Positions 25,208-58,164 are shown, counted from the first letter of the stretch. The stretch: 64,000 bases of DNA from a virus (IMGVR_UViG_3300005337_000019:18991-82990), one strand, 5' to 3'. Notes: generated by a model from the letters alone, not told the origin. A program made the numbers and translations.

Positions 25208-25223
25208 CGTTCCACGTGGAACA
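25208..25223. other. parS: chromosomal-type parS site
   Basis: CGTTCCACGTGGAACA, 15/16 match to TGTTCCACGTGGAACA; perfect 14-bp palindrome; intergenic. Confidence 0.7.
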
Positions 25224-25763
25224 CGCATCGGAAAGAACCCGATAACAATGGCATTCTTATCGGGTGGTCATCATGTTGACCACAAAGTCAACTTATTGAC
25301 CATTTCGGCGCGGATGTAAAGCGTCTCTTTACGTCTTTACATTCCGCCTTGCCTGAACCGCATCGACATACGCCGCCGGCGCGCCGCTCAGCCAGCACCA
25401 CGGCCTCGTCCACGTGTCTGTATGGTTCGTCGTCTTGTGCATCGGAAGGTGCGCCGATGGCAGCAGTCGCCGTCCGCACGCCGGGCAAGGCGTCCTGCGT
25501 GAGCGCGCTGCCGCGCGTCGTCTTCGCTGTTGCCGCCGGCCCATGGTGTTGATCGCATTGTAGCGACGGCACTTGCGAAGTCACCCCGCCTTTGTGCCAC
25601 TCTGATCGCGTCATTCGACGCTTCTGAACCTGACGGCAGGGCCGCTCCGGTTCACTGGGGGGCGTTGGAAAGTAACCGCCGAGAACCTTTCTGCATGGGG
25701 GTGCAGATCGGAACGAAGCGGCAAAACGGTCCAACAACTCATTTTCAGTGAAGGAGTCGCGCC

Positions 25764-27047
25764 ATGCTTCCTCCGGTCGCACAGGGAACCAGTGAGTCCC
25801 TGACCCTCGGCTTCGAAAACGGCTTCAAGACCATGCCCAACTCGCCGGTTCCCGGCGACAAGGTGCCGGTCACGAACCCGAATATTCGTCCCGAGCGAAA
25901 CAAGTTCACCTCCAACGCGCTGACCGGCTCTCCCGAGCCGCGTCCTGTCATCTTCGGCAAGATCGGCGTGTCCGGTTCGTTCGGTCTCGAGTGCAACCCC
26001 GCTTCCCTCATGCCCGTGTGCAAGGGGCTCTTCGGCGGGACGCGCACGAGCGGCGTCGCCGGCGTCTACGCCATCGAGTACTACCTCTCGACGATGCTGC
26101 CGATGTTCGTGCAGCAGAACCACACCGACATCAATCAGTTTCTCCTCTGGAACGGCATCTTCCTCGGCTCGACCACGTGGACGTTCGGCAGCGAAGGTCT
26201 GATGGAGGCCACCGTCAACGTGATGGGCGCGAAGGAAACCGTTTTCTCCGCGAACCAGGTCGACGGCACGATCACCGACCGCACCGGTTACGAGCCGTTC
26301 TCGTACCTCGCCGTCGTCGTCAAGAAAGCCGGCACCATCCTCGGCTACTCGCAGAGCGTCGAAATCACCATCGACCGCAAGCTCGGCAAGGCGATGGCCC
26401 AGGACCAGACGAACGAAGTCGCGCTCGTCTATTCGGAAGTCGCCGAGATCAGCGGCAAGATGACGGCGCTCTTCCCGGACGCCACGTTCCTCAACCTCGC
26501 GCTGGCCGGCAGCGAGACGAGCCTCGAGATTTTCCTCCCCTCGGTGAACGGCTACGGCATGTTCGTCGAGCTGCCGACCGTGAAGTTCCGCCCGCCCGCG
26601 GTCGTGACCAACGGCACCGGCGTCGTCACCCAGGAGCTCGAGTTCGACGCGTACGGCAAGTCCGGCGTCAGCAAGCTCCCCGGCCGCGTGCGCTCGTCGT
26701 ACTTCACCACCGCGACGCTGCCGACTCTCGACACGCTGACCCTCGTCATCGCCGTCGACGGCGGCGCCGATCAGACCGTGACGTTTGCCGCGCCGGCGGA
26801 CCTCGCCGCAGTCGTGACGCAGATCAACGCCGGAACGACCGGCCTGACCGCGAGCCTCGACAAGAACAACGACGACACCACCGGCGGCGTGATCCGCATC
26901 GAATCGGACACGAAGGGAACCGGCTCTTCGATCCTGGTCAAGTCCGCGTCGACCGCCGACGTGCTGCTCGGCATCGACAACGCGACGCACTCCGGTCTCG
27001 ACGGCAAATCGATCCTCGTCACTCTTCTCACGCCGCTCGCGGCGTAA
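25764..27047 (+). CDS. major tail (tube) protein with C-terminal appended domain
   Basis: AAGGAG SD; LTLGFENGF...GSFGLE...VELPTVKF; precedes chaperones and tape measure. Confidence 0.8.
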   Translation: MLPPVAQGTSESLTLGFENGFKTMPNSPVPGDKVPVTNPNIRPERNKFTSNALTGSPEPRPVIFGKIGVSGSFGLECNPASLMPVCKGLFGGTRTSGVAGVYAIEYYLSTMLPMFVQQNHTDINQFLLWNGIFLGSTTWTFGSEGLMEATVNVMGAKETVFSANQVDGTITDRTGYEPFSYLAVVVKKAGTILGYSQSVEITIDRKLGKAMAQDQTNEVALVYSEVAEISGKMTALFPDATFLNLALAGSETSLEIFLPSVNGYGMFVELPTVKFRPPAVVTNGTGVVTQELEFDAYGKSGVSKLPGRVRSSYFTTATLPTLDTLTLVIAVDGGADQTVTFAAPADLAAVVTQINAGTTGLTASLDKNNDDTTGGVIRIESDTKGTGSSILVKSASTADVLLGIDNATHSGLDGKSILVTLLTPLAA

Positions 27048-27116
27048 GGCGCCCCCGCGGGCGGCGCTCATGACGCCGCCCGCAAAAATTCAACAGAAGG
27101 AGCTGAACGAACCACC

Positions 27117-27536
27117 ATGGAAGTCACCAAAGCAATCCGCAGCACGCCCGGCCGCACGCGCACCGTCTATCCGCTCTCCGATCCCGCGAAGATCGCCGAG
27201 AAGTATCTCGATCCGAACTTCGCCGTGACCACGAAGGAGGAGAGCAACATCGCCTCCGCGCGCCGGTGGGACAAGTTCAAGTGGGACCCGTCGAACAAGA
27301 AGGACCCCCACTATTCCGAGAAGGCCATGAAGGTCGGCGAAGCGGCCGTCGAGGAGTTGCTCGTCGAAGTCGTCGGGCTGACCAACAACGGCGAGCCGAT
27401 CGACCTCGAGACGATCAAGCGCGACAGACTCCTCACCAACATTTCGGTCTACACGACCGACGACGAAGTGAAGTCGCTCTGGACGCTGACGCAGGATGCG
27501 ATCGACGAGCAGAAGAAGGAAGAAGCGGGAAACTAG
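27117..27536 (+). CDS. tail assembly chaperone (lambda gpG-like)
   Basis: between tube and tape measure; ends at slippery G-GGA-AAC-TAG. Confidence 0.8.
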   Translation: MEVTKAIRSTPGRTRTVYPLSDPAKIAEKYLDPNFAVTTKEESNIASARRWDKFKWDPSNKKDPHYSEKAMKVGEAAVEELLVEVVGLTNNGEPIDLETIKRDRLLTNISVYTTDDEVKSLWTLTQDAIDEQKKEEAGN

Positions 27537-27949
27537 AGGCGCTCGTTGCCTACTACTTTGGCGCCCCGCTCGACGATGCTGGCAAGCGGACAGCGCCCGG
27601 CAAGAGCGCATGTGATCTTTGCAAAAGCCAGGGCCTCCAGGCGGGGCTTCCGATCAAGAGGGACCCCGCCGAACAGGTTTGTCTCGCGAACCGCGCGGCA
27701 GGGCCGGGCGGCTGCGTCAATCCGGAGCCGACGATCCATTACCGCCTCGCGGGGTTGTGGCGCGTCTTCGGACTCGTGCAGGGCGATTACCGGCCCGATG
27801 GTCTGACCGGACGGTGGCAACGACCGTCCTGGGATGCCATCGAGACCATGGTCGTCGGCTGTGGCGAGCCGTGGGACGACATCACGATCTCGCGCATTTG
27901 GGCGTGGCTCGACGGCTTCGAATCTCGGTTGCCGAAGCCGAAGAAGTGA
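27527..27949 (+). CDS. gpT-like extension made by -1 programmed frameshift (G-T fusion 27117..27949)
   Basis: GGGAAAC at 27527-27533; the -1 frame (ORF 27266..27949) is open to 27949. Confidence 0.8.
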   Translation, partial: GKLEALVAYYFGAPLDDAGKRTAPGKSACDLCKSQGLQAGLPIKRDPAEQVCLANRAAGPGGCVNPEPTIHYRLAGLWRVFGLVQGDYRPDGLTGRWQRPSWDAIETMVVGCGEPWDDITISRIWAWLDGFESRLPKPKK

Positions 27950-27961
27950 AGGAGCCGCGCC

Positions 27962-28357
27962 ATGAAGAAGACGATCGCCACCTTCGCGATGTGCATCGCC
28001 GGTGCCCTTGCCGCGCTTTTGTGCGCGCAGGAGGCGCCGGCGCCCGCGCGTGTCGTCGTCCCGCTGTCGAGTGCCAAGCGCGCATGCACCTTCGCGCGCG
28101 GTGCGCGCTCCGTCTTTTACGAACGGCTGTATGTCGTGGCGAAGAAGGAAGTGCCCGCCGGCGAGCCGGATGAGTGGTGGGGCATCTTCCCCGACCGCAA
28201 ACAATCTCGTGATGCGAACGGCCTCCTGCGCGCGGTGAATGTGCCCGCGGCGGAGGTGCTGTTTACCGACCCCCACGACGGTCCGCTTTTTAGTGGGTCG
28301 TGCAAATGCCCGCCGGGGATGTGGACCGGCATTCCAGCAACGAGCGCGGTGCAATAG
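27962..28357 (+). CDS. small exported protein (moron-like)
   Basis: AAGGAG SD; signal peptide MKKTIATFAMCIAGALAALLCA. Confidence 0.65.
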   Translation: MKKTIATFAMCIAGALAALLCAQEAPAPARVVVPLSSAKRACTFARGARSVFYERLYVVAKKEVPAGEPDEWWGIFPDRKQSRDANGLLRAVNVPAAEVLFTDPHDGPLFSGSCKCPPGMWTGIPATSAVQ

Positions 28358-28359
28358 CG

Positions 28360-31300
28360 ATGGACATCGTTCAGGGCGTTCGCATTGAGGTTCAGACGAA
28401 GGGTACCGACAAGGTCGGCACTCTGAGCCGAAGTGTCGAAACGCTGATCGAAAAAGTCGGTGGCCTGAATAACCTGTCTCTCGCCGGGCTGACCTCCAAC
28501 TTGAACAGCGCCGCGCAAGCCGCGGCGAATCTCGTCAAGTCCATCAGCGGAACCGCAGTGACGCAACAGACCGCGCAGATGGGCCGCTCCGTCACGGCGG
28601 CCGCCGAAACGAGCTCGCGTGCCGTGGATCGCGCCGCGGCGCAGCAGGAACGTGCCGCCAAACGCGCCGCCGACACGCAGGCGCGGGAAGCGAAGCGCGC
28701 GGCCGACGCTGCTGAGCGCGAGCAGAAGCGGGCGACGGACGCCGCCGAGCGCGAGCAGAAGCGACTCACCGATGCGGCGGAACGGGAGCACCGCCGCATG
28801 ACGGCGGCTGTTGAACGCGAGGCGCGCAAGCGCCAGGCGGCCATCGAGCGCGAGGCCCGCGCCGAAGAGCGCGAGATGATGAACCTCGCCACGCGCGCCG
28901 CGCGAGGAGTGCAGCGCAACTTTGCGCTCGGCAAGCTCACGGACGGGCAAACGTCGACGCTCGGCAGCCTCGGTCTCTCGGCCTCCAGTCTTGCCGGGAT
29001 GGCGACGAAAGACGCGGCGAAGGCCATCAACGAAGCGTTGGGCAACATCCCGGACAAAGCGGAACGCACGCGCATGGCGTTTCAGCTCATGGGGCAGGCC
29101 GCGCAGTCGGCGACGCCGCAGATCAATTCCCTGAGCGGCGGCCTGATCGTCCTCCTACAGTCCTTCATGAAGGGCGGCACGAGCGGCATGTCGGCGGCGC
29201 TCGGCGCGCTGATCAACCCGTTGACGATCATCCTTGCCCTCGTCTTCGCCGTGACGGCCGCGTTCCGGATTCTCGTCAACGTCATCTCCATGGTCGCGAG
29301 CGCGATGTACGAGGCCGGGAAGACGGGGCTCGAGTACAACGCGTTTCTCCTTGAAGCGAAGCTCGGCATCGGCTCGCTGCTGATGACCTACGGCCGATGG
29401 ATCGACGGGCAGGGGCGCGTTATCGATTCGTCCCGCGCCTTTGTGCGCGCGCAGCAGTTGTCGGTGCAGGTGCTCGAGCAGGCCCGCATCGCCGCGCTGG
29501 AGACCACCGCCACATTCCCGGAAATGGTGAGAGGGCTTCAAGAGGGCATGGGTCCGGCCCTGCAGGCCGGCTTCAACCCGACGCAGGTGGTGAGGTTCAC
29601 GCAGGCGATGACGCAGGCCGCCGGCGCGATCGGCATGCCGTTCGAACAGCTCGGCCAAGAAATCCGCGGCGTGTTCGAATTCGACTTCTCCAAGAACAGC
29701 CGCATCAGCCGCATGCTGTTTCAGGGCATGGGCAAGAGCGCCGAGGAGCTGCGCACGCAGTTCGCGGCGATGAGCTCCGCCGCGCGGTTCGATTTCATCA
29801 TGGACCGGCTGAAGGCGTTCAGCCTCGCCGGCGATCAGCTCGCGCGCACGCCCAAGGGCGCGCTGTCGAACCTCAAGGACGCGTATCAGCAGATTCTCGG
29901 CGCCGGCACGGTGAAGCTGACGGACGACTTCACGAAGGCGGTGCTGCGCCTGTCCAACTCGTTCCTGATCGTTGGGAAGAACGGCGAGAAGGCATTCAAT
30001 CCGTTCCTCATCGAGGCGATCAAAAAGACGTACGACAGCGTCGACCGTCTCGGCATGAGGGTGCTCGATCTCGCCGAGGCGTTCTCCGCGCTCGTTCCGT
30101 TCGTGTCGTTGGACTTCAAAGGCGACACCACTTTTGAGCGCCTGTCGGACGCGATCAGCGACGCCACGCACAAGCTGCGCGAATACGCCGAAATCCTGCG
30201 CGACATCAGCAACCACCCGTGGAGCTGGGCGAGCACCGGCGCCACCGCGGGATTGATGGGGATGATGCCGTTCGGCACGCCGCTCGCCGCGCTCATCCTG
30301 AAATTGCGCGGAGCGACGAGCGGCCAATCCGCGAGCGCACGGGTCAGCGAAGAGGACGACTGGCTCAAGGACATCGCCGATCCGAAGGTCGCGAAGTGGA
30401 TTGCCGAGAACAGCACGGAGAACGGAGACCGGCGGTGGATTCGCGAGAACATCTCGTGGCTCAAGCAACTGCGCATTCAGTCCGGCGGGCCGGCGGCAGA
30501 AGAAGGTGCCATGCCGAACACCGGCAACGTCGACGCCTACTACCTGCAATACGACAAGCCCGACGACGCCGACACGGCCCACAAGATCGAGCAGATGAGG
30601 CAGGGTGTCGAAACGGCGCAGCAGCAGGCCAAGCTCGCGGGTACGGTGAACCAGTACGACCGCGAAAACCTCCAGCTCAAGATCGCGATCGGCAACGCCG
30701 ACGAGAAGCTCCTGAAATCGCGCGCCGAAGCCGAGAAGATGGAGGGCTCGGCGAAGCAAAAGACCGAGCTCCTGGCGCTTGCGCAGAAGCAATCGGATGC
30801 CGACAAGCTCGCCGCGCAGAACGCCTACAGCGTGGCGATGGATCGCATCTCGCGCCAGGCGAACGAACAAGTTCGGTCCGCGCAGGCGCAGCTCGAGATC
30901 ACCCGCATGCAGATCGGTGCGGCGGGCAAGCTCGATGAGCTCGTGCGCGCGCGCGTAAATCACAACGTGGCGCTTGCGAACATCGAGAACGAGCGTCTGT
31001 CGACGCGCGCCGGCATCGACCCCGGCAACCCGAACAAGGGGCGTCTGGAGAGCCTTGCCGATCAGACCGCGGCGGCGAAGCGCACGGCGGAAAACGTCGC
31101 GTACGAGGAATCGATCGCGGAGACCACGCGGCAGCAGGAAGAGCAGACGCGCGCGATGAAGTTCTCGGCCGACCAGGCCGAACGGAACCTCAGCCTCGCC
31201 CACGCGACCTTCGATGTGGAGAAGGCGAAGACGGCGGAGATTCTGACGCAGGGCGACGCAGCCCGGCTCGCGATCACGCAGCGCATCGCGGCCGAGACCG

Positions 31301-34152: not shown

Positions 34153-34715
34153 TTTCAATGGTGCTACATCTCATCGCCTGGGTCGTCGTTGCGTACGTCA
34201 CGATGTCGGCAACCGAGTACGTCTCTCACCGCTGGTTCATGCATCGGCCGATTGCGGCGCGCTGGCCTGCGCTGACGCAATTTCCGCGTCTGCAATGGCT
34301 GTGGGGGATCGTACGGCACGCGTACGCCAGGCACGCCGTGCTGCATCACGGTCGGCACTACGGGCGCTCCTTTGAGCGTTCGGACGACCCTGAAGCGCAG
34401 CACACCAGCGTGGATGTGACCCCCGCCGAGATGCTCGTCGGGCTGGCGCCATTGTGGTTGCCGGTGTTCTTTTTCGTGAGTTGGACGGGCGGCGTGATTC
34501 TGGCGATGACGTTCGTCGCCCACGGCTTCGCGTGGGGCGTGTTGCATCGCGAAATGCACGAACCGCAAGGCCGTTGGTTTGCCACGACGCGTCTCTATCG
34601 GTTCTTTCGCGGCTACCACGCCGCGCATCACGCGCACGTGAATCGGAACTTCAACGCGATTTTCCCGTTGTTTGACCACCTTTTCGGCACCTACGGAGGG
34701 CGCACCGTTGCGTGA
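34146..34715 (+). CDS. fatty acid hydroxylase / sterol desaturase superfamily membrane di-metal enzyme
   Basis: EYVSHRWFMH, HAVLHH, LHREMH, YHAAHH, NFNAIFPLFDHLFGT; hydrophobic helices. Confidence 0.88.
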   Translation: MVISMVLHLIAWVVVAYVTMSATEYVSHRWFMHRPIAARWPALTQFPRLQWLWGIVRHAYARHAVLHHGRHYGRSFERSDDPEAQHTSVDVTPAEMLVGLAPLWLPVFFFVSWTGGVILAMTFVAHGFAWGVLHREMHEPQGRWFATTRLYRFFRGYHAAHHAHVNRNFNAIFPLFDHLFGTYGGRTVA

Positions 34716-35301
34716 TCTCTCCAACCTTGAGGGGAAGCACACCGCGTCGGAAAACAACGCGCCGGTGTCGCTCGTCGCGATGGAGTTTCCCGGCAACCCC
34801 TACTACATGACGGACATCGACGCCGACTTCGGCGACGTGTATCTCAACCGCTCGAGCGGCGCGATGCAGCACGTGCCGGCTACGGGGTTCGATCTGTTCC
34901 TTCCGACGCCCGGCCTCAAGGTGCCGACCATCACCCTCTCCGACCAAACTATTCAGGACGACATGACGATCACCATCGCGAATCCGAATCGCGCATGGTT
35001 TCAGATCGTGGGCGCGAACGCATACCGCGATTCCCTCGTCACGGTGTGGCAGGGGCAGCTCGACGTGAGCTCGAGCTCACCTGAGCTCTTCAACTTCACC
35101 GAAGGCGGCGTGCGCCTCTACGTCGGCCGCGTCTCGGGCAATCTGCATGTCACGCGCGAGACGGCGACGATTCTCGTAAAGCCGCACGTCGTGCCGTTCA
35201 CGGTCACCATCCCTTACCGGATTCACGATGCCTCGCAATTCAAACGCCTCCCGCCGGCGAACAAAAAGCTGACGTGGGGATTCACGGTGCGGACGGAGTA
35301 G
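34708..35301 (+). CDS. tail tip / baseplate hub-like protein
   Basis: GGAGG SD plus TTG start; position in tail tip cluster. Confidence 0.55.
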   Translation: MRDLSNLEGKHTASENNAPVSLVAMEFPGNPYYMTDIDADFGDVYLNRSSGAMQHVPATGFDLFLPTPGLKVPTITLSDQTIQDDMTITIANPNRAWFQIVGANAYRDSLVTVWQGQLDVSSSSPELFNFTEGGVRLYVGRVSGNLHVTRETATILVKPHVVPFTVTIPYRIHDASQFKRLPPANKKLTWGFTVRTE

Positions 35302-35307
35302 AGACCG

Positions 35308-44602: not shown

Positions 44603-44620
44603 CGCCGCGCGAAGAACCTC

Positions 44621-44655
44621 TTGACATGCTGACCGGTAAGCATTACATTGGATTC
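44621..44655 (+). promoter_or_regulatory. class I promoter-operator cassette, copy 5
   Basis: TTGACA 44621, ATGCTGACCGGTAAGCAT 44626-44643, TACATT 44644-44649, ATG 44656. Confidence 0.85.
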
Positions 44656-45449: not shown

Positions 45450-45464
45450 ACGAGGAGGAAATTC

Positions 45465-48037: not shown

Positions 48038-48047
48038 TGTAGAATGA
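48024..48047 (+). promoter_or_regulatory. class II promoter/operator motif
   Basis: TTCATTCGTCATAGTGTAGAATGA. Confidence 0.8.
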
Positions 48048-48083
48048 GCCACACAATCCCACCACCTTCGAAGGAGACATTTG

Positions 48084-49271
48084 ATGACGAATCCGGCGTT
48101 ACCAGAAAGCCCGAGTGATGCGACGAAGATGTTCAACGATGCCCATCGAAACATCTCCGAGGCGCTTGCCGGAAATCAGGCGGTTACGCGTCTCGATGCG
48201 GCCGACCAACGCGCGATGCAACGCCAGCGTCCGCCGGTCAGCGGCGATCTCGCGAACCTGATCGAGCGCGCCGAAATCTTCGCCCGTTCCGGCTTCTTCA
48301 GCGACGCGAAGAGCGTGGCGCAGGCGGCCGTCAAGATCATGATCGGCCAGAGCATCGGCTTGACCGACATCGCCGCGCTGTCGGCGATCTACCTGTTCGA
48401 AAGCAAAGGCCGGACGGTCATAACGGTCGGTGCGCACATCCTCGCGGCGAAGATTCGTGCGAGCGATCGCTACCGCTTCAAGATCGCGGAGAGCACCGAC
48501 AAGCGGTGCGAGATTCACTTCTATGAAAAGGGATTCCTCGACGAACCCGGATGGACGATGGTGGGGCCGAGCGTCTTCACCCTCGAAGAGGCACAGGCCG
48601 CGGACCTCCTCAAGAAAGACAACTGGAAAGGCTACCCGCAGGACATGCTCTACGCTCGAGCTCTGGCGCGCGGGTTCCGCCGGTACACATCCGATCTGAC
48701 GGCCATCGTGCCCTACGTGCCCGAGGAGTTCGCGGACACAAATTTCCGGCCCGCCGGTATGACCATGGAGGCACCGCCATCGGCAGCGCCGTCGAACATC
48801 GCGCCGCGGCGTGCGAGCGAGGCGTATGCCGCGATCAAATGGCCGACAGACCGGCGCGATGAATGGCTTCGCGTGCACGAAGGCGCCGATATGCCGCAAT
48901 GCACGCAGAGCGGCTGCACCACATGCAGGTGGGACGAATGGGAAACCGCCTGCGCGGCGTGCGGATGGCCGATGGCACAGAAGGTTCACGACAAATGCAT
49001 CATCACCGTCGTCGATCCGCCGCTGTCGGACATGGCGCCGCGTCCGATGACGGTCGACGAGCTCCGGAAAGCGCGCGCGGAACAGCCGCCGATCGACGTG
49101 CCGCCGCAAGGCGATGACGAGGAGCTCCCGCGGACAGGCGACCGCAAGGCTGTCGAGGAATCGCTGATCGGGAAGCCGTGTCCGAAGCCAGGCCACGGCA
49201 CCTACTTCGGGCTGTGGTGTCCGGTCTGCGCTGACCCCGGTCTGCTCAACGATGCGAAGGAGCCGGAATGA
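48084..49271 (+). CDS. single-strand annealing protein (RecT/Beta-like)
   Basis: AAVKIMIGQSIGL...FTLEEAQAADLLKKDNWKGYPQDMLYARA...YVPEE. Confidence 0.75.
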   Translation: MTNPALPESPSDATKMFNDAHRNISEALAGNQAVTRLDAADQRAMQRQRPPVSGDLANLIERAEIFARSGFFSDAKSVAQAAVKIMIGQSIGLTDIAALSAIYLFESKGRTVITVGAHILAAKIRASDRYRFKIAESTDKRCEIHFYEKGFLDEPGWTMVGPSVFTLEEAQAADLLKKDNWKGYPQDMLYARALARGFRRYTSDLTAIVPYVPEEFADTNFRPAGMTMEAPPSAAPSNIAPRRASEAYAAIKWPTDRRDEWLRVHEGADMPQCTQSGCTTCRWDEWETACAACGWPMAQKVHDKCIITVVDPPLSDMAPRPMTVDELRKARAEQPPIDVPPQGDDEELPRTGDRKAVEESLIGKPCPKPGHGTYFGLWCPVCADPGLLNDAKEPE

Positions 49272-49456
49272 GGAAGTGGAAAATCGTGACGCCTTTCATC
49301 GTCGCCGTCGACGCCGCGCTGTACGGCTTCGTGATGCGCGGATATGCCGTCCGACACGCCGTTGACCACGCCACCCGCTTTGGCGTGATCCACGGCGTCA
49401 TCTTCGCGGTGTGCTTCCCGATGGTGGTGTTGGGGCTCCGGAGATTGCTCAGATGA
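49268..49456 (+). CDS. small membrane protein
   Basis: two hydrophobic segments; ATGA-coupled on both sides. Confidence 0.55.
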   Translation: MRKWKIVTPFIVAVDAALYGFVMRGYAVRHAVDHATRFGVIHGVIFAVCFPMVVLGLRRLLR

Positions 49457-52035
49457 CGGCCGCCGCGCCGCTTTCATGGGAAGTCGAGGCGCAGCAGCTT
49501 CGCATCCTCGGCTTGCATCGATCGAGACTTCGCCCCGGCGAGATCGGAGTTGATCTCTTTGCCGGCGGCGGAGGCTACTCGGAAGGCTACCAGTGGGCGG
49601 TCGGGATGCCGCCCGCCGTCGCGGTGAATCACGACGCGAACGCGATCGCGATGCACACGATGAATCACCCGGAGGCTGAACACTTCCTCGAGGACGTGTT
49701 CCACGTCGATCCGCTGATCGCGTGCCGCGGGCGTCTGGTCGGCATGCTGCACGGCTCGCCGGATTGCACTCACTTTTCCCGAGCCAAAGGTTCGGTTCCG
49801 AAGTCGAAGAAGATTCGCGGGCTCGCGTGGGCGATCGTCCGGTGGGCGGCCGAAGTCAACCCGCGCATGCTCTCGCTCGAGAACGTCGAGGAGTTCATGA
49901 CCTGGGGGCCCCTAGACGACCGCGGCAATCCCGTCAAAGCGCGCGCCGGCGAGACATTCCGTGCGTTCGTTGCGTGCTTGACCGATGGACTTCCGGCCGA
50001 TCATCCCGCGTATGAGGACATGCACTTCGCGTTGGTCGGCGATCCTCCGGTGCCGTGCCGGAAACATCCTCGCCGCCGGCGAGCTCGCTGCCTGAAATGC
50101 CAGGCGATCGCGGCGTCCGACTATCCGCGAATGCCGCTCGACCGCTACGAGGCGATCGTCGCGAAGTGCGTCAAGGGACTGCGCTACGAGGTGGAATGGC
50201 GCTCTCTCAAGGCTGCCGATTTCGGAGCGCCGACCTCACGCAAGCGCCTCTATGTCTTCGGCCGCCGTGACGGCGAGTCGATTCGCTGGCCGCTGCCGAC
50301 GTACGGACCGAAAGCGCACAAACCCTACCGCACCGCGGCCGACTGCATCGATTGGCGGGATCTCGGCGTCTCGATTTTCCTGACTCCGGAGGAGGCGCGC
50401 GCGTACGGCGTGAAGCGGCCTCTCGCTGAGGCCACGCAGCGCCGCATCGCGGAGGGCATTCGCCGGTATGTCCTGAACAGCCCGAAGCCGTTTCTCGTGC
50501 CGTACCACAGCGCCAGGCGGCCCGAAGAGACGCCGCGCGTGCACGATGTCGACGACCCGCTGGCGACGCAGACGACCGAGAACCGGTTCGCGGTGGTCAC
50601 GCCGACGCTGATGAGCAACAACACGAACAACGCGCCGCACTCTATCGAGGAGCCGCTCGGCACGGTGACGACCGGAAACCGGCACTTCGCCATTGCGCCG
50701 TTGCTCACGCCGGCGAACAGCCACGGTTTCGACGCGGACGGTGGTTCGCCCACCGCGCCGGCCGATCGTCCGATGCGGACCGTCATCACGAAGGACCCCA
50801 AGGCGCTCATCGCGCCGCAGCTCCTGAACGTGACGCACGGCGGGCGCATTGAACCCGCCGACGAACCGTTCAAGACGATCACGGCCGCGCACCGCGGCGA
50901 GAAGGCGCTCGTCGCGCCGACGCTGATTCAGACGAGCTACGGCGAGCGGAAAGGGCAAGCGCCTCGAGTCCTTGACCTCGACGAACCTCTCGGCACCGTC
51001 GTCGCCGGCGGTGTCAAGCATGGCCTCGTGGAGACGATCATGACGCGCGAGGAAGATGTCGCGGCCTTCCTCGTCCGCAATAACACCGGCATGAACGCGC
51101 GCGACCTGAAGGAAGTGATGCCGACCGTCTGCGCGCGCGAGACGATGTCACTCGGCCTGGCACACATCACAAAGTTCAACACCGGCAGCGTCGGCGCTTC
51201 CGTCGAGGACCCGCTGCCGACGATCACCGCCGGCGATGGATCGAAGCGGCCCGCCGGAGCCGCGCACGGCCTCGGCGTCGTCACCGCGCACGTGGTGACG
51301 CACAACGGGCAGTCGGTCGGCTCGGCTGCCGATGCTCCGGTCCCGACCGTGACAGCGGGCGGCATGGGTCATCAGGGCGTTGTGATCGCGCACATGCTCG
51401 ACGTGACGCCGTGCCCGGAGATCGAAGGCCGGTGGCACGTCGGAAACGGGTGGGATCTCTGCGTCGACGAGACAGGACTCTCGCACGTGCAGGAGAAGGA
51501 GCGCGCGGAGGAACGAGAGCAGGCCGAGCTTGCGGCGGCGATCCACGTCACGCAGTTCAACGGGACATCGGAAGCCGGCGCGCCGGTCGACGAGCCGATG
51601 CGCACGGTGACGAGCGGCGGCAACCGCGGCGGCGGGCATCATGGCGTCGCGGCGGTGCACCTCGCGAAGTATTACGGTTCCGATGAGCACGGCCAGGCAG
51701 CGGATGAGCCGCTTCATACTGTACCGACCGTCGACCGTTTCGCGCTCGTCGCTGCGTTCCTGCGAAAGTTCGACGTGATCGACGACGACCGCCCGTACGT
51801 CACGGTGTCGATCGAGACTGAACCCGGCAAGCACGAGACATTCATCCTCTACGACATCGCCATGCGCATGCTTCAACCGCGCGAGCTGGCGCGCGCGCAG
51901 GGGTTCCCCGACAGCTATCAGCTCACCGGCACCAAGTCGCAGCAGGTCGCGCGCATCGGCAATTCGGTCTGCCCGCACGTCGCCGCGGCGATCGTCCGCG
52001 CGAATCTCGACAGCGAGGAGGAAGTGTGGAACTGA
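49453..52035 (+). CDS. C5 DNA cytosine methyltransferase with repeat-expanded variable region
   Basis: DLFAGGGG, SPDCTHFS, LENVEEF, APTSRKR, C-terminal RIGNSVCP. Confidence 0.93.
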   Translation: MTAAAPLSWEVEAQQLRILGLHRSRLRPGEIGVDLFAGGGGYSEGYQWAVGMPPAVAVNHDANAIAMHTMNHPEAEHFLEDVFHVDPLIACRGRLVGMLHGSPDCTHFSRAKGSVPKSKKIRGLAWAIVRWAAEVNPRMLSLENVEEFMTWGPLDDRGNPVKARAGETFRAFVACLTDGLPADHPAYEDMHFALVGDPPVPCRKHPRRRRARCLKCQAIAASDYPRMPLDRYEAIVAKCVKGLRYEVEWRSLKAADFGAPTSRKRLYVFGRRDGESIRWPLPTYGPKAHKPYRTAADCIDWRDLGVSIFLTPEEARAYGVKRPLAEATQRRIAEGIRRYVLNSPKPFLVPYHSARRPEETPRVHDVDDPLATQTTENRFAVVTPTLMSNNTNNAPHSIEEPLGTVTTGNRHFAIAPLLTPANSHGFDADGGSPTAPADRPMRTVITKDPKALIAPQLLNVTHGGRIEPADEPFKTITAAHRGEKALVAPTLIQTSYGERKGQAPRVLDLDEPLGTVVAGGVKHGLVETIMTREEDVAAFLVRNNTGMNARDLKEVMPTVCARETMSLGLAHITKFNTGSVGASVEDPLPTITAGDGSKRPAGAAHGLGVVTAHVVTHNGQSVGSAADAPVPTVTAGGMGHQGVVIAHMLDVTPCPEIEGRWHVGNGWDLCVDETGLSHVQEKERAEEREQAELAAAIHVTQFNGTSEAGAPVDEPMRTVTSGGNRGGGHHGVAAVHLAKYYGSDEHGQAADEPLHTVPTVDRFALVAAFLRKFDVIDDDRPYVTVSIETEPGKHETFILYDIAMRMLQPRELARAQGFPDSYQLTGTKSQQVARIGNSVCPHVAAAIVRANLDSEEEVWN

Positions 52036-52436
52036 GACTCGCGGCGCTTCTCGATCACATCCAGAAGGAGCGCGACTTCAACGAAGGGTGGATTTCGCTC
52101 CACATGCGCGACGGTCATCCGGCCGCGGCGGAGAGGCGCCGCGCTGTCGTCGCAGAACGTGACGAATGGATTGCCGCCCTCCGCGCCGTCGCCGCGCCGT
52201 GGGTTCGCTGCTCGGAACGTCTGCCGGACCGGCCCAACGCCGTCCTCGTCGTCGACGGTGGCGTGACGCGGATCGGTTATTTCGAAGATGGATGGTTCTA
52301 CGGCAGCGAACCGCTGACGCACGTCACGCATTGGACGCCGCTACCAGCAAAGCCGTCGCCGCAAGAGATCGGCGAGGAAGCACGCAAGCAATGGCCCGAA
52401 TGGGTGCACGACATCGGAGAGGAGGATGAATCATGA
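52026..52436 (+). CDS. DUF551-like protein
   Basis: WVRCSERLP...VTHWTPLPAKP. Confidence 0.8.
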   Translation: MELRLAALLDHIQKERDFNEGWISLHMRDGHPAAAERRRAVVAERDEWIAALRAVAAPWVRCSERLPDRPNAVLVVDGGVTRIGYFEDGWFYGSEPLTHVTHWTPLPAKPSPQEIGEEARKQWPEWVHDIGEEDES

Positions 52437-52855
52437 AAGCGTTCCAATACGAATACGGGTCACTCCAACGCGTCGTGCACGAGAACGAGATCGCGCCGGC
52501 GCTTGCCGGTGGTAGCGGTGAAGTCGACGGGCCCGCAGCGAACGTGCGCAAAGTTCTCGGACTCGAGCTCAACGAAGCGGTGACGTTTCCGAGCGGTGCC
52601 AAGTGGACACGTCTGGCTGATGACACACCGAAATTCACCGCGATCATTTGTCGCGGTCGTGGCTCTGCGAAGCCGTGCAAGTATTGCAGCGCATCGCACA
52701 CGAAGCTCTGCGACTATCCGGTCACGAGGAACGGCAAATTTGAGACGTGCGATATCCCGATGTGCGACAGATGCACCACGCGCGGTGGCCCGAACGTCGA
52801 CTATTGCCGTCCGCACGCGAAGATGGTTCGCACGGGCGGTGCGGCGCAGAGGTAG
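52433..52855 (+). CDS. Cys-rich hypothetical protein
   Basis: CKYC...LCDYPV...TCDIPMCDRC...DYCRPH. Confidence 0.7.
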   Translation: MKAFQYEYGSLQRVVHENEIAPALAGGSGEVDGPAANVRKVLGLELNEAVTFPSGAKWTRLADDTPKFTAIICRGRGSAKPCKYCSASHTKLCDYPVTRNGKFETCDIPMCDRCTTRGGPNVDYCRPHAKMVRTGGAAQR

Positions 52856-53085
52856 GCGATGGCGCGGAGCTGCTGGAACTGCGGGCACTTCGAAACGGAG
52901 CACATCGGTGCGACAGGGCCGTGCATCGTCTGGATCATCGGGCCGCTGGTGAAGGAGCGGCAGTGCTCGTGTCAGATATTCGATCCGATCACGATCGAGC
53001 GGTGCGAGAAATGGATTCGCGCCACGTACAACCGAGACTATGCGACGGGGCGGGTGATGTTCTTCCTGCTCGAGGAGTTAAAGCG

Positions 53086-53472
53086 ATGCGTGTAGATCAC
53101 AAAGACACCGTGCCAGTAATGGCGAACATCGTGCCGTGGAACGAGGCGATCCTCCGCGGCATCCGCACGTTCAAGACGCTGCACTTCAATTGGTCGTATC
53201 GCGGGCCGCTCGTGCTCTACAACAGCCACGGCCAGCCTGCCGCGGATGACATCGTCTACGGAGCCACGCACGGCATCAATATCGCCGAGCAGCGCCGCGG
53301 GTTCATCGTGGGCGTAGTCGATGTGGTCGACTGCGTCGATGCGCGCCGCGAGGACGGTCATTGGCACGTCGAACTGCGCAATCCGCGCCGCGTTGACCCT
53401 CTGCCGTACAAGCCGACGCGCGGATCGATCCGCATCTCGCGCATGCCCAGGACTGCTGCGCCATGGCTCTGA
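53086..53472 (+). CDS. ASCH domain protein
   Basis: PWNEAILRG...WSYRGPLVL...GFIVGVVDVVDC...WHVELRNPR. Confidence 0.75.
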   Translation: MRVDHKDTVPVMANIVPWNEAILRGIRTFKTLHFNWSYRGPLVLYNSHGQPAADDIVYGATHGINIAEQRRGFIVGVVDVVDCVDARREDGHWHVELRNPRRVDPLPYKPTRGSIRISRMPRTAAPWL

Positions 53473-53885
53473 ACTGGGCCGGCATTCGTACAGGGCTTGT
53501 CGCTTTGCGCGTGAGCGCAGGGATGACGCAGAAGGGCCTCGCCTTGGCGTCTGGCGTCGGCGAGAAGACGATCGGCAGCTATGAGGCCGGCAGCCGCATT
53601 AAAACGATGAAGGTCAAGCAACTCGATGCCATCCTCGGCGCGCTCGGCACGAACCTCGTCGACTTTTTCTCCTCCATCGACGAGAGCGCCGCCGCCGAAG
53701 AAGAATCGGAGGCGCCGCCACCGAGGCGCCCTGCGCACAATGTGCCGGATGATGATCTCGATGCCGTCGCTTGCGACCTGGCGCGCATGACACGCCCGCA
53801 AAGTCTTGCCTATCCGAGCCCGCAGAGTTCTCTCAGCAACCACGCCCGCATCGGCGTGCATCTGTCGCGGCGTCATTCGTCATAG
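53463..53885 (+). CDS. XRE-family HTH regulator
   Basis: LRVSAGMTQKGLALASGVGEKTIGSYEAG. Confidence 0.85.
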   Translation: MALNWAGIRTGLVALRVSAGMTQKGLALASGVGEKTIGSYEAGSRIKTMKVKQLDAILGALGTNLVDFFSSIDESAAAEEESEAPPPRRPAHNVPDDDLDAVACDLARMTRPQSLAYPSPQSSLSNHARIGVHLSRRHSS

Positions 53886-53894
53886 TGTAGAATG
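53873..53894 (+). promoter_or_regulatory. class II promoter/operator motif
   Basis: TCATTCGTCATAGTGTAGAATG; ATG 7 nt after TAGAAT. Confidence 0.8.
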
Positions 53895-53900
53895 GCGCTC

Positions 53901-54629
53901 ATGAGCGGTGCACGGCCATGGGAGTCCATTCGCGAGCAGACGCGCGCCGAGCGGCACGCGCGCGAGGTAGGCGTCAAGTTCGACGAGCAGTTGCACCGAT
54001 ACACGATCGGTGACCGCAAGCTGCTGAACGTCACGACCATCCTGAAGCTCGCCGGCTACTACGACTTCTCGCACATCGATCCGATTTACCGAGACCGCGG
54101 CAAGGACGCGCACGCGGCCGTGCACTACTCGATGGATGGCGACCTCGATCGATCGCACCTCGAAACCATCGCCGAAACAGGCGCCTTCGATCTGCGTCCG
54201 TACGTTATTGCCGCCGAGAAATTCATCATGGAAAACGATATCGAAATCGTTCATCCGGAGGCGGTCGTGGTTGCCGCGAACATGGGCTTTGCCGGCAAGG
54301 TTGATGTGTTCGGGTTCATCCGCCGCATGAAAATCCTGTCCCTCATCGATTGGAAGCTCGGTGATCTCATCGACGCGTACGGCGTGCAGCTTGCCGCCTA
54401 CAAAATCGGATGGTGGGAGATGACGCGGGCCGCAACCGGGAAGGGCGAGATGGTCGGGAAGCGGTTCTGCGTGCGCCTCCTGCCCGACGCCACCTATCGC
54501 GTGCGCGAGTACAAGGACAACCGCAACGACGAACGGCGCTTTCTCAGCGCGCTCGACGTGGTGCAGACGCGCATCGAGTACGGCACGCTCAAGCCCGAGG
54601 AGGTATGGCCGGAGGCGCATGCGGCATAA
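53901..54629 (+). CDS. PD-(D/E)XK exonuclease
   Basis: FDEQLHRY...NVTTIL...RGKDAH...FAGKVD...IDWK...QLAAY. Confidence 0.88.
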   Translation: MSGARPWESIREQTRAERHAREVGVKFDEQLHRYTIGDRKLLNVTTILKLAGYYDFSHIDPIYRDRGKDAHAAVHYSMDGDLDRSHLETIAETGAFDLRPYVIAAEKFIMENDIEIVHPEAVVVAANMGFAGKVDVFGFIRRMKILSLIDWKLGDLIDAYGVQLAAYKIGWWEMTRAATGKGEMVGKRFCVRLLPDATYRVREYKDNRNDERRFLSALDVVQTRIEYGTLKPEEVWPEAHAA

Positions 54630-54702
54630 CACATCGGCGGCACGAGTTTCCGCGACCAGTGCCGTCGCCAACTTTCAGCGGAATGAAAGGGGTTCAGGTT
54701 TG

Positions 54703-55296
54703 ATGAATAAAGTCTTCGCAGCACTTCTCGCCGTCGTGGTTCTGATCGTAGTAGCGGCCGGCATCGTTGCCGCCGTGTGGGTCAGCTATTCGAACACCGA
54801 GATTCGTCTTCGCGCGCAGGTCGAGGCGCAGCAGCAATCGAACGAGGCTGTGTTCGACAACACGTGGAAGATCATCGCGCAGCAAGCCGGCGTGTCCTCG
54901 CAGTACAAGGACGCCTTCAAAGAGATTTACCCGGCGCTGATGAACGGTCGCTACGGCAACGCCCGCGGCGGCGCGATGATGTCGTGGATCACCGAGCACA
55001 ATCCCAACTTCGACGCACGGCTCTACGAGAAGGTGATGAATTCGATCGAGGCGCAGCGCACGATTTTCACCACCGAGCAGAAGAAGCTGGTCGACCTCAG
55101 CCGTGAGCAGAAGACGCTCCTGGCGACGTTCCCCGGTTCATTCTTCCTGTCCGGACGCACGCCTACCGCCATCACGATCGTCACGTCCTCGAAAACCGAG
55201 GCTTCCTTCAAATCGGGCAAGGATGACGATGTCGATCTGTTCAAGCACGATTCCACGCCGGCGCCGAGCACCACTTCTGCCGCCGCCTCACGTTGA
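54703..55296 (+). CDS. membrane-anchored LemA-like helical protein
   Basis: N-terminal TM helix, SYSNTEIRLR, ...TFPGSFFL; resembles LemA-type proteins. Confidence 0.55.
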   Translation: MNKVFAALLAVVVLIVVAAGIVAAVWVSYSNTEIRLRAQVEAQQQSNEAVFDNTWKIIAQQAGVSSQYKDAFKEIYPALMNGRYGNARGGAMMSWITEHNPNFDARLYEKVMNSIEAQRTIFTTEQKKLVDLSREQKTLLATFPGSFFLSGRTPTAITIVTSSKTEASFKSGKDDDVDLFKHDSTPAPSTTSAAASR

Positions 55297-55322
55297 TCTA
55301 GAACAATGGAGAGGAGTGCCGC

Positions 55323-56513
55323 ATGTTGATCTGGTTCGCACTCGTGATCCCCGTGCTGTCGGCCGTCGTCTTGCTGATCTTTTGGCGACGATTCGTGACG
55401 TGGTGGGAGCTCGCGATCCCGGTTGCCGCTGCGGCGCTCCTCATCGTCGGTTTCAAAGCCGGCGTCGAGTCATCGCTGACGACGCAGACCGAATACTGGG
55501 GCTCGAGCGTTGCGCGCGCGACATATACCGAGCACTGGGATGAAGAGGTTTCGTGCCGCCACTCGTACAACTGCCGGTGCAAAAAAGATAGCAAGGGCAA
55601 CGAGTCGTGCGACACGTGCTACAGCCACGCGTACGACGTTGACGATCATCCGGAGACGTGGACCGTCGCCGCTACCTCCGGCGAAACCTTTCCGATCGGC
55701 AGCGGCGAGTACTCCCGCCTGACGAGGCAGTTCGGGAACCAAGCGTTTCGCGCGCTGCATCACCACAACGTGCACTCGATCAACGGAAACGCCTACGACA
55801 CCACATGGCCGGGAACGGACGAGACGCTGGAAGCGGTGACCACGGCGCACACGTACGAGAACCGGGTGCAGGCGTCGAACAGCATTTTCCGGTTTCAGGA
55901 CGTGGACCCGAAAGACGTTGCGACGTATGGGCTCTATCAGCATCCCGGCATCAGCAACTACAGCAGCCCGGCTCTCCTCGGTTTCAATTCGCCGGCGGCC
56001 GAACGCGCGCTGCAGGTCATCAATGCGCGCCTCGGCGCGCGCAAACAAGTGCGCGTTTATCTGCTCGTGTTTCGCGACAAGCCGATCGAAGCCGGCGCCC
56101 TGCAACAGCGGTATTGGCAGGGCGGGAACAAAAACGAGTTCGTCATGACGGTCGGCATCGACAAGGCCGGTGCCGTTTTGTGGGCGTTCCCGTTCTCCTG
56201 GAGCGAACGCGAAGGGCTCAAGATCGATGCGCGCAATCACATCATGGAGCAGCCTCGATTCGATCCCGTCGAATATGCGACGTGGTTGCGCCCGCAGATT
56301 CTTCGCCAGTGGCAGCGGAAACGGTTCCGCGATTTCAACTACCTCACCGTTGAGCCTCCGACATGGGCGGTGGTCACGACGTATTTGCTGACCACCATCG
56401 TGACGGTCGTCATCGCGTTTTGGATCGTGAGAAACGATTTCGTCGCGCCTGATGAACAACGGCGCCGGCGCGAGGATGCCGCGACCAGGCGACGCCGCTA
56501 TCCATGGGCGTAG
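55323..56513 (+). CDS. membrane protein with extracytoplasmic Cys motif and TPM-like region
   Basis: two N-terminal TMs and one C-terminal TM; YWQGGNKNEFV. Confidence 0.6.
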   Translation: MLIWFALVIPVLSAVVLLIFWRRFVTWWELAIPVAAAALLIVGFKAGVESSLTTQTEYWGSSVARATYTEHWDEEVSCRHSYNCRCKKDSKGNESCDTCYSHAYDVDDHPETWTVAATSGETFPIGSGEYSRLTRQFGNQAFRALHHHNVHSINGNAYDTTWPGTDETLEAVTTAHTYENRVQASNSIFRFQDVDPKDVATYGLYQHPGISNYSSPALLGFNSPAAERALQVINARLGARKQVRVYLLVFRDKPIEAGALQQRYWQGGNKNEFVMTVGIDKAGAVLWAFPFSWSEREGLKIDARNHIMEQPRFDPVEYATWLRPQILRQWQRKRFRDFNYLTVEPPTWAVVTTYLLTTIVTVVIAFWIVRNDFVAPDEQRRRREDAATRRRRYPWA

Positions 56514-56530
56514 TGAGCACGCATGCGCGC

Positions 56531-56552
56531 TCATTCGTCATAGCGTAGAATG
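56531..56552 (+). promoter_or_regulatory. class II promoter/operator motif
   Basis: TCATTCGTCATAGCGTAGAATG. Confidence 0.8.
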
Positions 56553-56580
56553 CATCTATCTCACACATGAAAGGACGTGC

Positions 56581-57585
56581 ATGACTATTTCCAGCGAAAC
56601 CACCGGTGCTCAAATGGAGATCGTCGTTCCCGAAAAGCTGGCGCACGACGTAAGTGAGCTCGTGCAACGGGCTTCGGAGATCACGATCGCGAGCGACCAG
56701 GACTACGCCGCGGCGGCCGCCTTCCTTAATGAGCTCGGCCGCGGCATCACGCAGATCGAGGATTTCTTCAAGCCGCACAAACAGAAGGCGCGCGCCACAT
56801 GGCAAGGGCTTGTCGACGACGAGAAGGATCGTCTCGCGCCGCTCGAGGCTGCACGGACCATCGTCCGCGACAAAAAGATGAAGCCCTATTACCTCGAGCA
56901 GGAACGGCTGCGTGCAGCCGAGAAGAAACGTCTCGAGGAAGTTGCGCTGAAGCAAGCGGAGGAGCGCAAACAGGCCGAGATCGCACAGGCGAAGAAGGAA
57001 GCCGAAGAGAAGGCGCGCATCGAGATCGAGGCGGCGAACCAGAAGGCGCAACAGGAGAAGGAAGCGAGCGAGCGCCAGGCGAAAGCAATCGAAGCCGACG
57101 CGCTCAAGCGCGCTGATGAGCTATTGGCATCCGGCAAGGCGGATGAGGCGCAACGCGTTCTCGATGACGCGGCCCAACGCCAGCAGAACCTGCGAGATGA
57201 CGCCGAAGAGACGGCCGAAAGGATTCAGCGCGAGGCTGCCGACGAGGCGGAGCGCGTGACCGCCGAGGGCGAGATCATCGCGCAGGACATCGCATCTACT
57301 GCCGTGCATGTGCCGATCGTCAGCATGGCCGCAGCTCCAAAGGCGCGCGGCACGTCGGCCGCCAAAAAGTTCAAGGCAGACCGCGAGACCTACGACAAGC
57401 GCAAGGCTGTGGCCTTCATCGCTGCCGAAGTCGCCCGCGGCAACGTGGCGCTCCTGTCCTGGTTCGATCTCAACTTCGCGAAGATTGACCAGAGCGCGGG
57501 TCAGATGCAGGAGCTTTTCCCGTCGTTCGAAACGTGCGGCATCAAAGTCGGCGAGGACACCACCATCCGCGGGAGCCGAAAGTAA
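56581..57585 (+). CDS. coiled-coil phage protein of recombination modules
   Basis: AAGGA SD; ITIASDQDYAAAA...IEDFFKPHK; long E/A/K-rich coil. Confidence 0.7.
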   Translation: MTISSETTGAQMEIVVPEKLAHDVSELVQRASEITIASDQDYAAAAAFLNELGRGITQIEDFFKPHKQKARATWQGLVDDEKDRLAPLEAARTIVRDKKMKPYYLEQERLRAAEKKRLEEVALKQAEERKQAEIAQAKKEAEEKARIEIEAANQKAQQEKEASERQAKAIEADALKRADELLASGKADEAQRVLDDAAQRQQNLRDDAEETAERIQREAADEAERVTAEGEIIAQDIASTAVHVPIVSMAAAPKARGTSAAKKFKADRETYDKRKAVAFIAAEVARGNVALLSWFDLNFAKIDQSAGQMQELFPSFETCGIKVGEDTTIRGSRK

Positions 57586-57890
57586 TGAGCGTACTTCTCG
57601 CCGCGATCAATCGTGCCCGCCAGGCTCGCGGAAATGACGACAGCGGCATTTTGATCGAGTGCCCCGATGGTTTGGTCGTGGGGGCGACGATCGACGCTCA
57701 CGGGCGCGAGAGTGGCGGCGAGTTCGTGCCGTGCGGGAGACAGGTGTCCTACCGGGGCGCCTGTCCCCGCTGTGGCAGCCGTAGCTGGGCGCCGGCGGGG
57801 CCGGATGAGTCGACGCCTGTCGACCTGAAGGCGAAGCGCGAGGAGCGTGCCGCGCGCAATATTTTGAGGCTCGTGGGGGGCATGGATTGA
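57585..57890 (+). CDS. small Zn-ribbon protein
   Basis: ACPRCGSRSW; TAATG coupling. Confidence 0.6.
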   Translation: MSVLLAAINRARQARGNDDSGILIECPDGLVVGATIDAHGRESGGEFVPCGRQVSYRGACPRCGSRSWAPAGPDESTPVDLKAKREERAARNILRLVGGMD

Positions 57891-57895
57891 TGATC

Positions 57896-58164
57896 GTGGA
57901 AGGCTCGAGCAACGCTGTGGAAAACCTGCGGAATCTCTCCGGATTTCCCGAGTCGCGCCACTCGGCGCAATCGAGGCTGCGGAAAAATGCGGCCTCGATC
58001 CTCAAATTTTCCGCGCTGTTTTCCGCAATTCAAAACCCACCTATCCGACGCAGGGCCATAGCGTTGCCCGAGTTTTCCACAATTCATGCTAACCACTACC
58101 ACTACCACAAGAAAGAGAGACCTGTATTTCAGATGGAACCGGCGACTGAGCAAACTGCGGAAAA
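57896..58164. other. putative DnaA-dependent origin (oriC-like): DnaA-box-like cluster plus trio-like run
   Basis: TGTGGAAAA 57916, TGCGGAATC 57927, TGCGGAAAA 57978, TTTTCCGCG 58007, TTTTCCGCA 58019, TTTTCCACA 58073, TGCGGAAAA 58156; CCA-CTA-CCA-CTA-CCA-CAA at 58093-58110. Confidence 0.55.

Follow-up and report, generated by a model that had tools for sequence, protein, structure and literature searches.

Why would a tailed phage carry the centromere sequence of a bacterial chromosome? The question arises from a 64,000-nucleotide stretch of viral DNA, bases 18991-82990 of the 82,990-bp IMG/VR virus record IMGVR_UViG_3300005337_000019, which is called the window here and whose positions serve as coordinates throughout. 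A first-pass annotation had reported two host-like elements, an intergenic palindrome resembling the chromosomal parS site at 25208-25223 and an oriC-like box cluster at 57.9 kb, and had suggested that the phage may persist as a "mini-chromosome", initiated by host DnaA and segregated by host ParB and SMC. The reading that we favor, with moderate confidence, is that the palindrome is a true parS of the chromosomal type, present as an orphan cis-site in a ~83-kb tailed phage that does not integrate and probably infects Gemmatimonadaceae, that host ParB would be loaded on this site, and that the box array is a separate element.

The parS site and its gap

The annotated palindrome is where it was said to be. 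The 16-mer CGTTCCACGTGGAACA agrees with TGTTCCACGTGGAACA at 15 of 16 positions, includes a perfect 14-bp palindrome and lies in a 594-bp gap between a small minus-strand gene (24753-25169) and the tail-tube gene (25764-27047). It is the sole match at two or fewer mismatches to the palindromic consensus in the 82,990 bp, shuffled sequences giving an expectation of 0.01 per window. The gap was compared with that of one relative, IMGVR_UViG_3300030511_000001 (81,633 bp, 66.7% guanine plus cytosine (GC)), which is ~75% identical in DNA to the window's genome (64% GC), with ~65-88% identity in collinear blocks, and carries a perfect TGTTCCACGTGGAACA (16/16) in the homologous gap. Chromosomal-type parS sites are 16-bp palindromes matching TGTTNCACGTGNAACA, a pattern to which the window's site conforms at 15 positions and that of the relative at all 16.

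Alignment of the two phages resolves the site as an island of 18 identical nucleotides in diverged surroundings, the preceding 36 nt being 31% identical and the following 58 nt 29% identical. Since 18 of 18 positions are identical amid ~30%-identical flanks, the pattern indicates that the palindrome itself is under selection. The features of the gap and its borders are listed below.

24721-24745, plus strand: GC-rich hairpin terminator closing the upstream operon
24753-25169, minus strand: small Cys-rich (zinc-ribbon-like) phage protein, conserved start probably 25118
25208-25223, no strand assigned: host-type parS CGTTCCACGTGGAACA, single copy in the genome, perfect in the relative at the homologous place
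25209-25226, no strand assigned: conserved island GTTCCACGTGGAACACGC, 18 nt identical in both phages
25286-25345, no strand assigned: operator- or promoter-like conserved repeats TTGACCATT and ATGTAAAG...CTTTAC..CTTTACAT, unique in the genome
25546-25763, plus strand: highly conserved non-coding block and leader preceding the tail-tube gene, which likely holds late promoter or activator sites
25764-27047, plus strand: tail tube protein (PF18906)

The terminator at 24721-24745 sets the parS gap apart as a separate promoter region. Between the two phages, identity in the block that precedes the tail-tube gene amounts to 74-76%, unbroken matches extend to as many as 33 nt, and the block is probably a late promoter or activator region. 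A structured RNA in this block was considered and rejected, Rfam giving no match and the fold z-score being -1.2.

Given these surroundings, the palindrome might be the operator of a phage regulator such as the adjacent small zinc-ribbon protein, its identity with parS being coincidental. The site lies 40-90 bp upstream of the conserved start of that small gene, in a gap rich in other conserved inverted repeats. However, a random 16-bp palindrome would equal one of the four palindromic parS variants with a probability of ~6e-5, the relative's site is perfect, and unrelated viral contigs contain that perfect 16-mer at least 40 times as often as control palindromes (see below). Moreover, the neighboring protein has no DNA-binding family assignment: it matched no Pfam or PHROG family, its nearest ESM Atlas clusters are viral hypothetical proteins, and a PDB sequence search gave no usable match. 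We therefore regard coincidence with an operator as very unlikely.

Orphan parS sites and the centromere of the putative host

A phage parS without phage partition proteins would have to be read by proteins of the host. Both phage genomes were searched in six frames with hidden Markov models (HMMs) at E<=1, and the control genomes gave a match each time. These searches found no ParB_N or AAA_31 (ParA) domain, no Phage_integrase, Resolvase or rve domain and no DnaB_C or DNA_pol_A domain. Likewise, no known Rep, helicase or polymerase family was seen among the phage proteins, most of which are without annotation. Hence the first-pass statement that parA/parB, integrase and replication genes are absent from the window holds at the HMM level for the whole genome. 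For Rep proteins this absence is weak negative evidence, because most genes lack annotation and could easily include a novel initiator. Marks of lysogeny, such as a repressor/anti-repressor switch or an addiction module, were not identified. The phage thus has neither the tyrosine or serine recombinase or DDE transposase of an integrating temperate phage, as judged by these HMM searches, nor the partition ATPase and centromere-binding protein of the usual phage-plasmid design, from which the first-pass annotation had distinguished it.

These absences refer to complete genomes. The window's genome is collinear with the relative and circularly permuted: the last 3 kb of its contig correspond to the first 4.2 kb of the relative, directly after which the contig's own first bases align. 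The ends of the relative overlap by 253 bp with one mismatch, and a second assembly of the identical sequence, broken at another point, forms an 81,521-bp contig of a Gemmatimonadaceae metagenome-assembled genome (MAG). Therefore both phage genomes are in essence complete, being closed circles or circularly permuted, and carry no host flanks; the CheckV completeness of 72-79% is too low for them. The circularity and the lack of host flanks and of an integrase (the last by HMM), which had been proposed as checks on an episomal phage, are accordingly found. Note that the window's contig terminates in a 12-C run (63989-64000), probably an assembly artefact, the true genome running on into the contig's first bases.

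DNA searches returned little beyond the one relative. Two 8-kb stretches gave no match among 50,697 cultured phage records, scans of IMG/VR and of Joint Genome Institute (JGI) metagenomes recovered only the one relative (the same contig in three collections), and among 401 Gemmatimonadota genomes only the relative's contig was found. A further IMG/VR scan with the tail-tube homologue P0008 found nothing. As proteins, twenty tail-tube homologues (41-81% identity) were found, as was a third relative (P0023, on a 41.6-kb contig) of a regulator-like gene described below.

The site itself is far more widely distributed. An exact scan of IMG/VR for TGTTCCACGTGGAACA gave at least 120 contigs (loci L083-L202; figures derived from them apply to the matches listed) and three contigs for each of two composition-matched control palindromes, one being the reversed sequence and the other having the CACGTG core kept and the arms shuffled, which is an enrichment of at least 40-fold. 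The 120 loci listed form 96 flank-similarity clusters over a GC range of 23-71%, and no protein in common with this phage was found among them. Searches by tblastn with the ParA and ParB of the MAG detected neither protein near the sites in 1.0 Mb of surrounding sequence, although the positive control worked, and the ten longest of the contigs listed contained no ParB_N. Four of these ten are 100% complete with direct terminal repeats, and no tyrosine integrase was found in the five contigs tested, all four complete ones included. The sites lie in long open frames moderately less often than random positions do (64% versus 85%; 96 loci, GC <=55%), and their flanks show a preference for AA before and TT after the palindrome. 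Contamination with host DNA was rejected as the origin of the viral parS sites, given the lack of ParA/ParB nearby and the four complete genomes with terminal repeats. Because at least 120 contigs in many clusters carry the site with no ParA/ParB nearby, complete genomes being among them, these data indicate that an orphan host-type parS recurs in real phage genomes and is neither a peculiarity of this phage nor a contaminant.

The sole clue to the host is the binning of the relative's contig in the Gemmatimonadaceae MAG. In that MAG dnaA and a parA-parB operon lie 32 kb apart on one 88-kb contig, there is a single ParB gene, and two parS sites, TGTTTCACGTGAAACG and TGTTCCACGTGAAACA, stand directly upstream of parA. 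One or two perfect parS sites were found in 18 of 31 family genomes (the sample includes the unpublished G159, used only in the dnaA and parS presence tallies), at ~15-30 kb from dnaA where both share one contig; the host family itself has very few parS sites per genome. Exactly TGTTCCACGTGGAACA is used by six family genomes, whereas the reversed control pattern matched one. A chromosomal ParB with the same cognate sequence is thus present in the host to which binning points, and the comparison indicates that the phage carries exactly the centromere sequence of its putative host family. As a separate observation, dnaA is accompanied in most of the searched Gemmatimonadaceae genomes by another open frame, ~570-890 aa long, in which two Bac_DnaA (AAA+) domains stand in tandem (for example G002:C154:762-2324, with equivalents in other family genomes).

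The box array at 57.9 kb

Is the second locus a host-type origin, as its first description had it? The cluster exists, is significant and is conserved, whereas the oriC-like reading was not supported by comparison with host origins, since most boxes lack a CACA core and the match to a host-oriC profile was not significant. The array, the gene downstream of it and the recombination genes of the same module are as follows.

57895-58164, no strand assigned: TTTCCRCA box array, with minus-strand boxes at 57916, 57927, 57978 and 58156 and plus-strand boxes at 58008, 58020 and 58073
58086-58897, plus strand: predicted DNA-binding protein with a zinc ribbon and tandem helix-turn-helix (HTH) units, conserved start MLTTTT at 58086, in-frame starts 58133 or 58202
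56452-57585, plus strand: exonuclease-like protein (phrog_10477), part of the recombination module
53892-54629: exonuclease, recombination module
48081-49271: weak RecT-like match, recombination module
~58900-59481: VRR-NUC protein, recombination module

The array contains 8 TTCCRCR heptamers within 300 bp, compared with ~0.26 expected (genome-corrected Poisson P ~1e-7), and six of the genome's seven TTTTCCRCR 9-mers; the homologous gap of the relative has five heptamers (P ~0.005). Several boxes form tandem pairs 10-12 bp apart, three groups pointing leftward and the next groups rightward, and a small zinc-ribbon gene (57534-57890) bounds the gap on the left. In the alignment with the relative the box positions are kept as footprints in a diverged spacer. 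Two homologous boxes differ by an A/G swap (TGCGGAAAA here, TGTGTAAAT and TGTGGAAAT in the relative), and because A and G interchange in this way the recognized core appears to be CCRCA. The strict DnaA box TTWTNCACA fits only two 9-mers, at 57916 (minus) and 58073 (plus), the others being CCGCA or CCGCG variants. The relative has three NTCCACA boxes and one CACA-core variant (ATTTACACA), its other boxes being CCGCR variants. In both genomes the two gaps, that of the array and that of parS, rank among the 300-bp intervals with the least GC, yet at 53-56% GC they are not AT-rich. The range of GC skew is too small for placing an origin or terminus.

Host origins were represented by the dnaA-dnaN spacers of 28 Gemmatimonadaceae genomes, 6.1 kb in all (L049, L054-L081). 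The family oriC core is very regular and consists of two abutting NTCCACA boxes, a short GC step, four or five CTA/CTG trios of the CTACTACTGCTAC type and an AT-rich stretch. The heptamers enriched in the 28 spacers are CTCCACA, TTCCACA, GTCCACA and CTACTAC, whereas TTCCGCA occurs only 6 times in the 6.1 kb. The host dnaA region itself uses TTTTCCACA, boxes of this sequence are present at the phage locus, and two to four boxes per phage genome equal the host DnaA box. In addition, one phage box precedes an ATGCT..CTAC-rich tract that is superficially like the host core. With an nhmmer profile of the host-oriC core, the best match in the window's genome fell at 58067-58105, on box 58073, with an E value of 8.4, which is not significant, and in the relative the locus ranked fourth (E=11). 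Significant likeness to host oriC was therefore rejected. A DnaA-trio reading was rejected as well, the tract after box 58073 (ATGCTAACCACTACC...) being an ATG plus threonine codons of a conserved open frame. In the relative and in P0023 this tract is in frame with the downstream gene, and it is conserved as protein (MLTTTTSTREKESIS versus MLTTTASTREKESIS). The phage locus thus differs from the host core: it has a single box, its triplets fit only alternately, coding sequence occupies the place of the trios, and an AT-rich unwinding element is lacking, the spacer having 55.6% GC. The host DnaA box is matched exactly by a few boxes, yet taken as a whole the oriC reading finds no support in these comparisons.

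This bears directly on the mini-chromosome proposal, a low-copy episomal prophage in which host DnaA would fire at the 57.9-kb cluster and host ParABS would segregate the DNA through parS, the phage having no Rep or Par protein of its own. Several observations agree with it: the circular assemblies without host flanks, the lack of integrase, resolvase, rve, ParA, ParB, DnaB and Pol A in two complete genomes, the binning of the contig with the host MAG, which fits a chromosome-like depth, the boxes identical to the host DnaA box, the low GC of both loci and the position of the best profile match on box 58073. However, that match is not significant in either genome, most boxes are of the CCGCA/CCGCG forms that are only weakly enriched in the 28 host-family spacers, the trio-like tract encodes the conserved N-terminus MLTTTT.., and no unwinding element is present. 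Moreover, a multi-HTH protein gene lies directly downstream of the array, a novel initiator could easily hide among the more than half of the proteins that lack annotation, no lysogeny mark was identified, and complete genomes of the virion type, bearing terminal repeats, are what other orphan-parS phages have. We judge such a prophage improbable. Of the first-pass idea of a host-signal episome, the borrowing of ParB is well supported, by the conserved parS, the lack of ParA/ParB and the family centromere, whereas a DnaA-driven mini-chromosome is possible but unsupported.

The gene downstream of the array encodes a protein with an HTH_17 match slightly below the Pfam cut-off (26.3 versus 27 bits) and a PHROG "transcriptional regulator" match. 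In an AlphaFold (AF2) model, whose predicted local distance difference test (pLDDT) score is 73, the protein has a zinc ribbon at its N-terminus and several copies of a three-helix HTH unit, and no RepA-type winged-helix pair is seen. ESM Atlas and PDB sequence searches with this protein gave no usable result. The locus therefore has the repeated sites beside a DNA-binding protein gene that characterize iteron origins and lacks a RepA-type initiator. Note that a 1-nt difference in an AG-rich run (58086-58140) puts the MLTTTT start out of frame in this genome only, which could be real or an assembly error.

Because the multi-HTH gene directly adjoins short tandem boxes, the most economical pairing is that its product is most likely the protein that binds them. 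The array, at the head of the early/recombination module, would then be an autoregulated early control region separate from parS and the best candidate for the phage origin, with the two to four host-type boxes possibly binding DnaA as a helper. The array could also be a composite origin of the P1-oriR or lambda kind, in which a phage initiator would act on the TTCCGCR iterons and host DnaA on flanking TTCCACA boxes, opening the DNA and loading the host helicase. Two box classes do coexist and are conserved, a candidate initiator gene adjoins the array, the recombination module flanks it, and, no phage helicase or polymerase having been found, the host replisome must be recruited. However, the A/G interchange at homologous boxes blurs the two classes, the protein model lacks the RepA-type pair, and the GC skew places neither origin nor terminus. 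On balance a composite origin seems doubtful.

As to the rest of the genome, Pfam and PHROG scans of ~70 called genes describe a tailed phage, more than half of whose proteins have no family match. Terminase, portal and an extra HerA-like ATPase are encoded upstream of the window. Within it are a P22-type coat protein, the tail-tube protein, a 1,950-aa tape-measure-like protein and tail-tip proteins. The early/DNA-metabolism module begins at ~44.6 kb and contains two or three exonucleases, the weak RecT-like protein, the VRR-NUC nuclease, several DNA methyltransferases, an HTH_3 protein and a DUF5131 protein. A 541-aa phrog_1735 protein gave no usable result in ESM Atlas and PDB sequence searches. 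The HerA/DUF87-like ATPase (652 aa; L002:16388-18346) is present besides the terminase large subunit, in an accessory block between the portal and capsid genes. The load of DNA-modification genes is unusually heavy (a DUF4942 methylase, an 874-aa C5 methylase, Dam, a weak Mom-like match and an N6/N4 methylase, at 5282-6904, 49411-52035, 62188-63066, 63447-63971 and L002:1-813).

Probable borrowing of host ParB

We infer from the parS conservation, the gene content and the host-family centromere that the phage probably borrows host ParB, for which phi29 is the precedent. After entry, host ParB dimers would nucleate on the phage parS and load as cytidine triphosphate (CTP) clamps, which would couple the phage genome to the host ParA/SMC machinery, by the logic shown for phi29 and Spo0J. 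Unintegrated phage DNA could thereby be positioned and inherited by daughter cells in a delayed or carrier state. Given the position of parS in a promoter gap that precedes the tail operon, ParB bound there may in addition dampen neighboring promoters.

That last possibility can be taken further, in that parS may serve lytic growth, either because phage copies titrate host ParB and so disturb segregation, SMC loading or division, or because ParB acts as a copy-number-sensitive repressor or insulator of the late tail promoter. Titration is made easier to imagine by host-family chromosomes having only one or two perfect sites. The site lies in a promoter-bearing gap after a terminator and between divergent genes, and many complete phages that have terminal repeats and lack an integrase carry an orphan parS. 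In Pseudomonas aeruginosa chromosomal ParB is reported to repress promoters beside parS3 and parS4 (PMC5521831). However, a tie between the site in this phage and transcription is conjectural, the transcriptional effect of chromosomal ParB is usually small, and phi29, the sole case studied by experiment, employs parS for segregation. A purely lytic role is thus rather unlikely in our view.

ParB borrowing for segregation has a close parallel in phi29 (and Nf), which likewise have host chromosomal-type parS, lack ParB and ParA, do not integrate and exploit the host partition machinery (PMC2731898). This bears out the first-pass remark that phi29 carries host-type parS. Its five sites are used through Spo0J, with phage DNA entry into the prespore (PMC2731898). 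In the literature searched, the phi29 family was the only studied case of an orphan phage parS found. The two systems share a host parS without phage ParA/ParB, but differ in that phi29 is a 19-kb protein-primed podovirus with several dispersed sites and entrapment in spores, whereas the present phage has one site in a genome of 83 kb and is long-tailed, encoding a tail tube and a tape measure. The putative host phylum is not known to form spores. The phage-plasmids P1 and N15 also maintain extrachromosomal phage DNA with centromere sites, but they encode their own ParAB or SopAB and initiators, no known family of which was found here, and their centromeres are other than chromosomal parS. In N15 the centromeres are located in regions of late genes, whose expression they affect. 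A mobile element with only a cis-site that takes its partition proteins from another replicon is exemplified by SGI1, which is reported to hijack the parABS of its helper IncC plasmid (PMC10954446). SGI1 is, however, an integrative mobilizable island exploiting a helper plasmid rather than a phage exploiting a chromosomal system.

Several points weigh against the borrowing of ParB and the separate role of the array as proposed above. Binding of ParB, DnaA and the HTH protein at the phage sites is predicted. The conservation evidence comes from only one independent relative: parS is kept in this close relative, and in a distant one, with 43% identity in the tail tube and a contig of 8.7 kb, the 4 kb upstream contain no parS. 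The phage has a single parS, compared with five in phi29, and the neighboring small zinc-ribbon protein could in principle bind the palindrome. That the host is probably a soil Gemmatimonadaceae follows from metagenomic binning alone. For the array, the pairing with the HTH protein was made by position, the model of that protein has no significant structural match in the PDB (the weak ones being tandem homeodomain and Myb repeats), and a role of DnaA is possible given the host-type boxes and is not to be dismissed.

If ParB borrowing is correct, the use of a host centromere protein, studied experimentally in one small Bacillus phage family, extends to a large phage that is unrelated to it and belongs to a soil phylum of which little has been studied. 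The at least 120 viral contigs, with hosts of 23-71% GC, suggest that such borrowing is widespread among phages, and the breadth of orphan parS in viral metagenomes is the most interesting lead of this work. The occurrence of orphan parS in complete phages with terminal repeats fits a general phage use of host ParB, for which a mini-chromosome lifestyle is not needed. That this phage, and perhaps many of the at least 96 orphan-parS lineages, are replicons of host cis-signals only, with ParB segregation and DnaA initiation at an array, is quite improbable, but if true it would be a natural phage "mini-chromosome". If host ParB loads on such genomes, ParB, SMC and ParA would be general host factors in phage biology, with possible effects on carrier states, inheritance of unintegrated DNA, late-gene timing and interference with host segregation, and orphan parS would be a cheap marker for host prediction.

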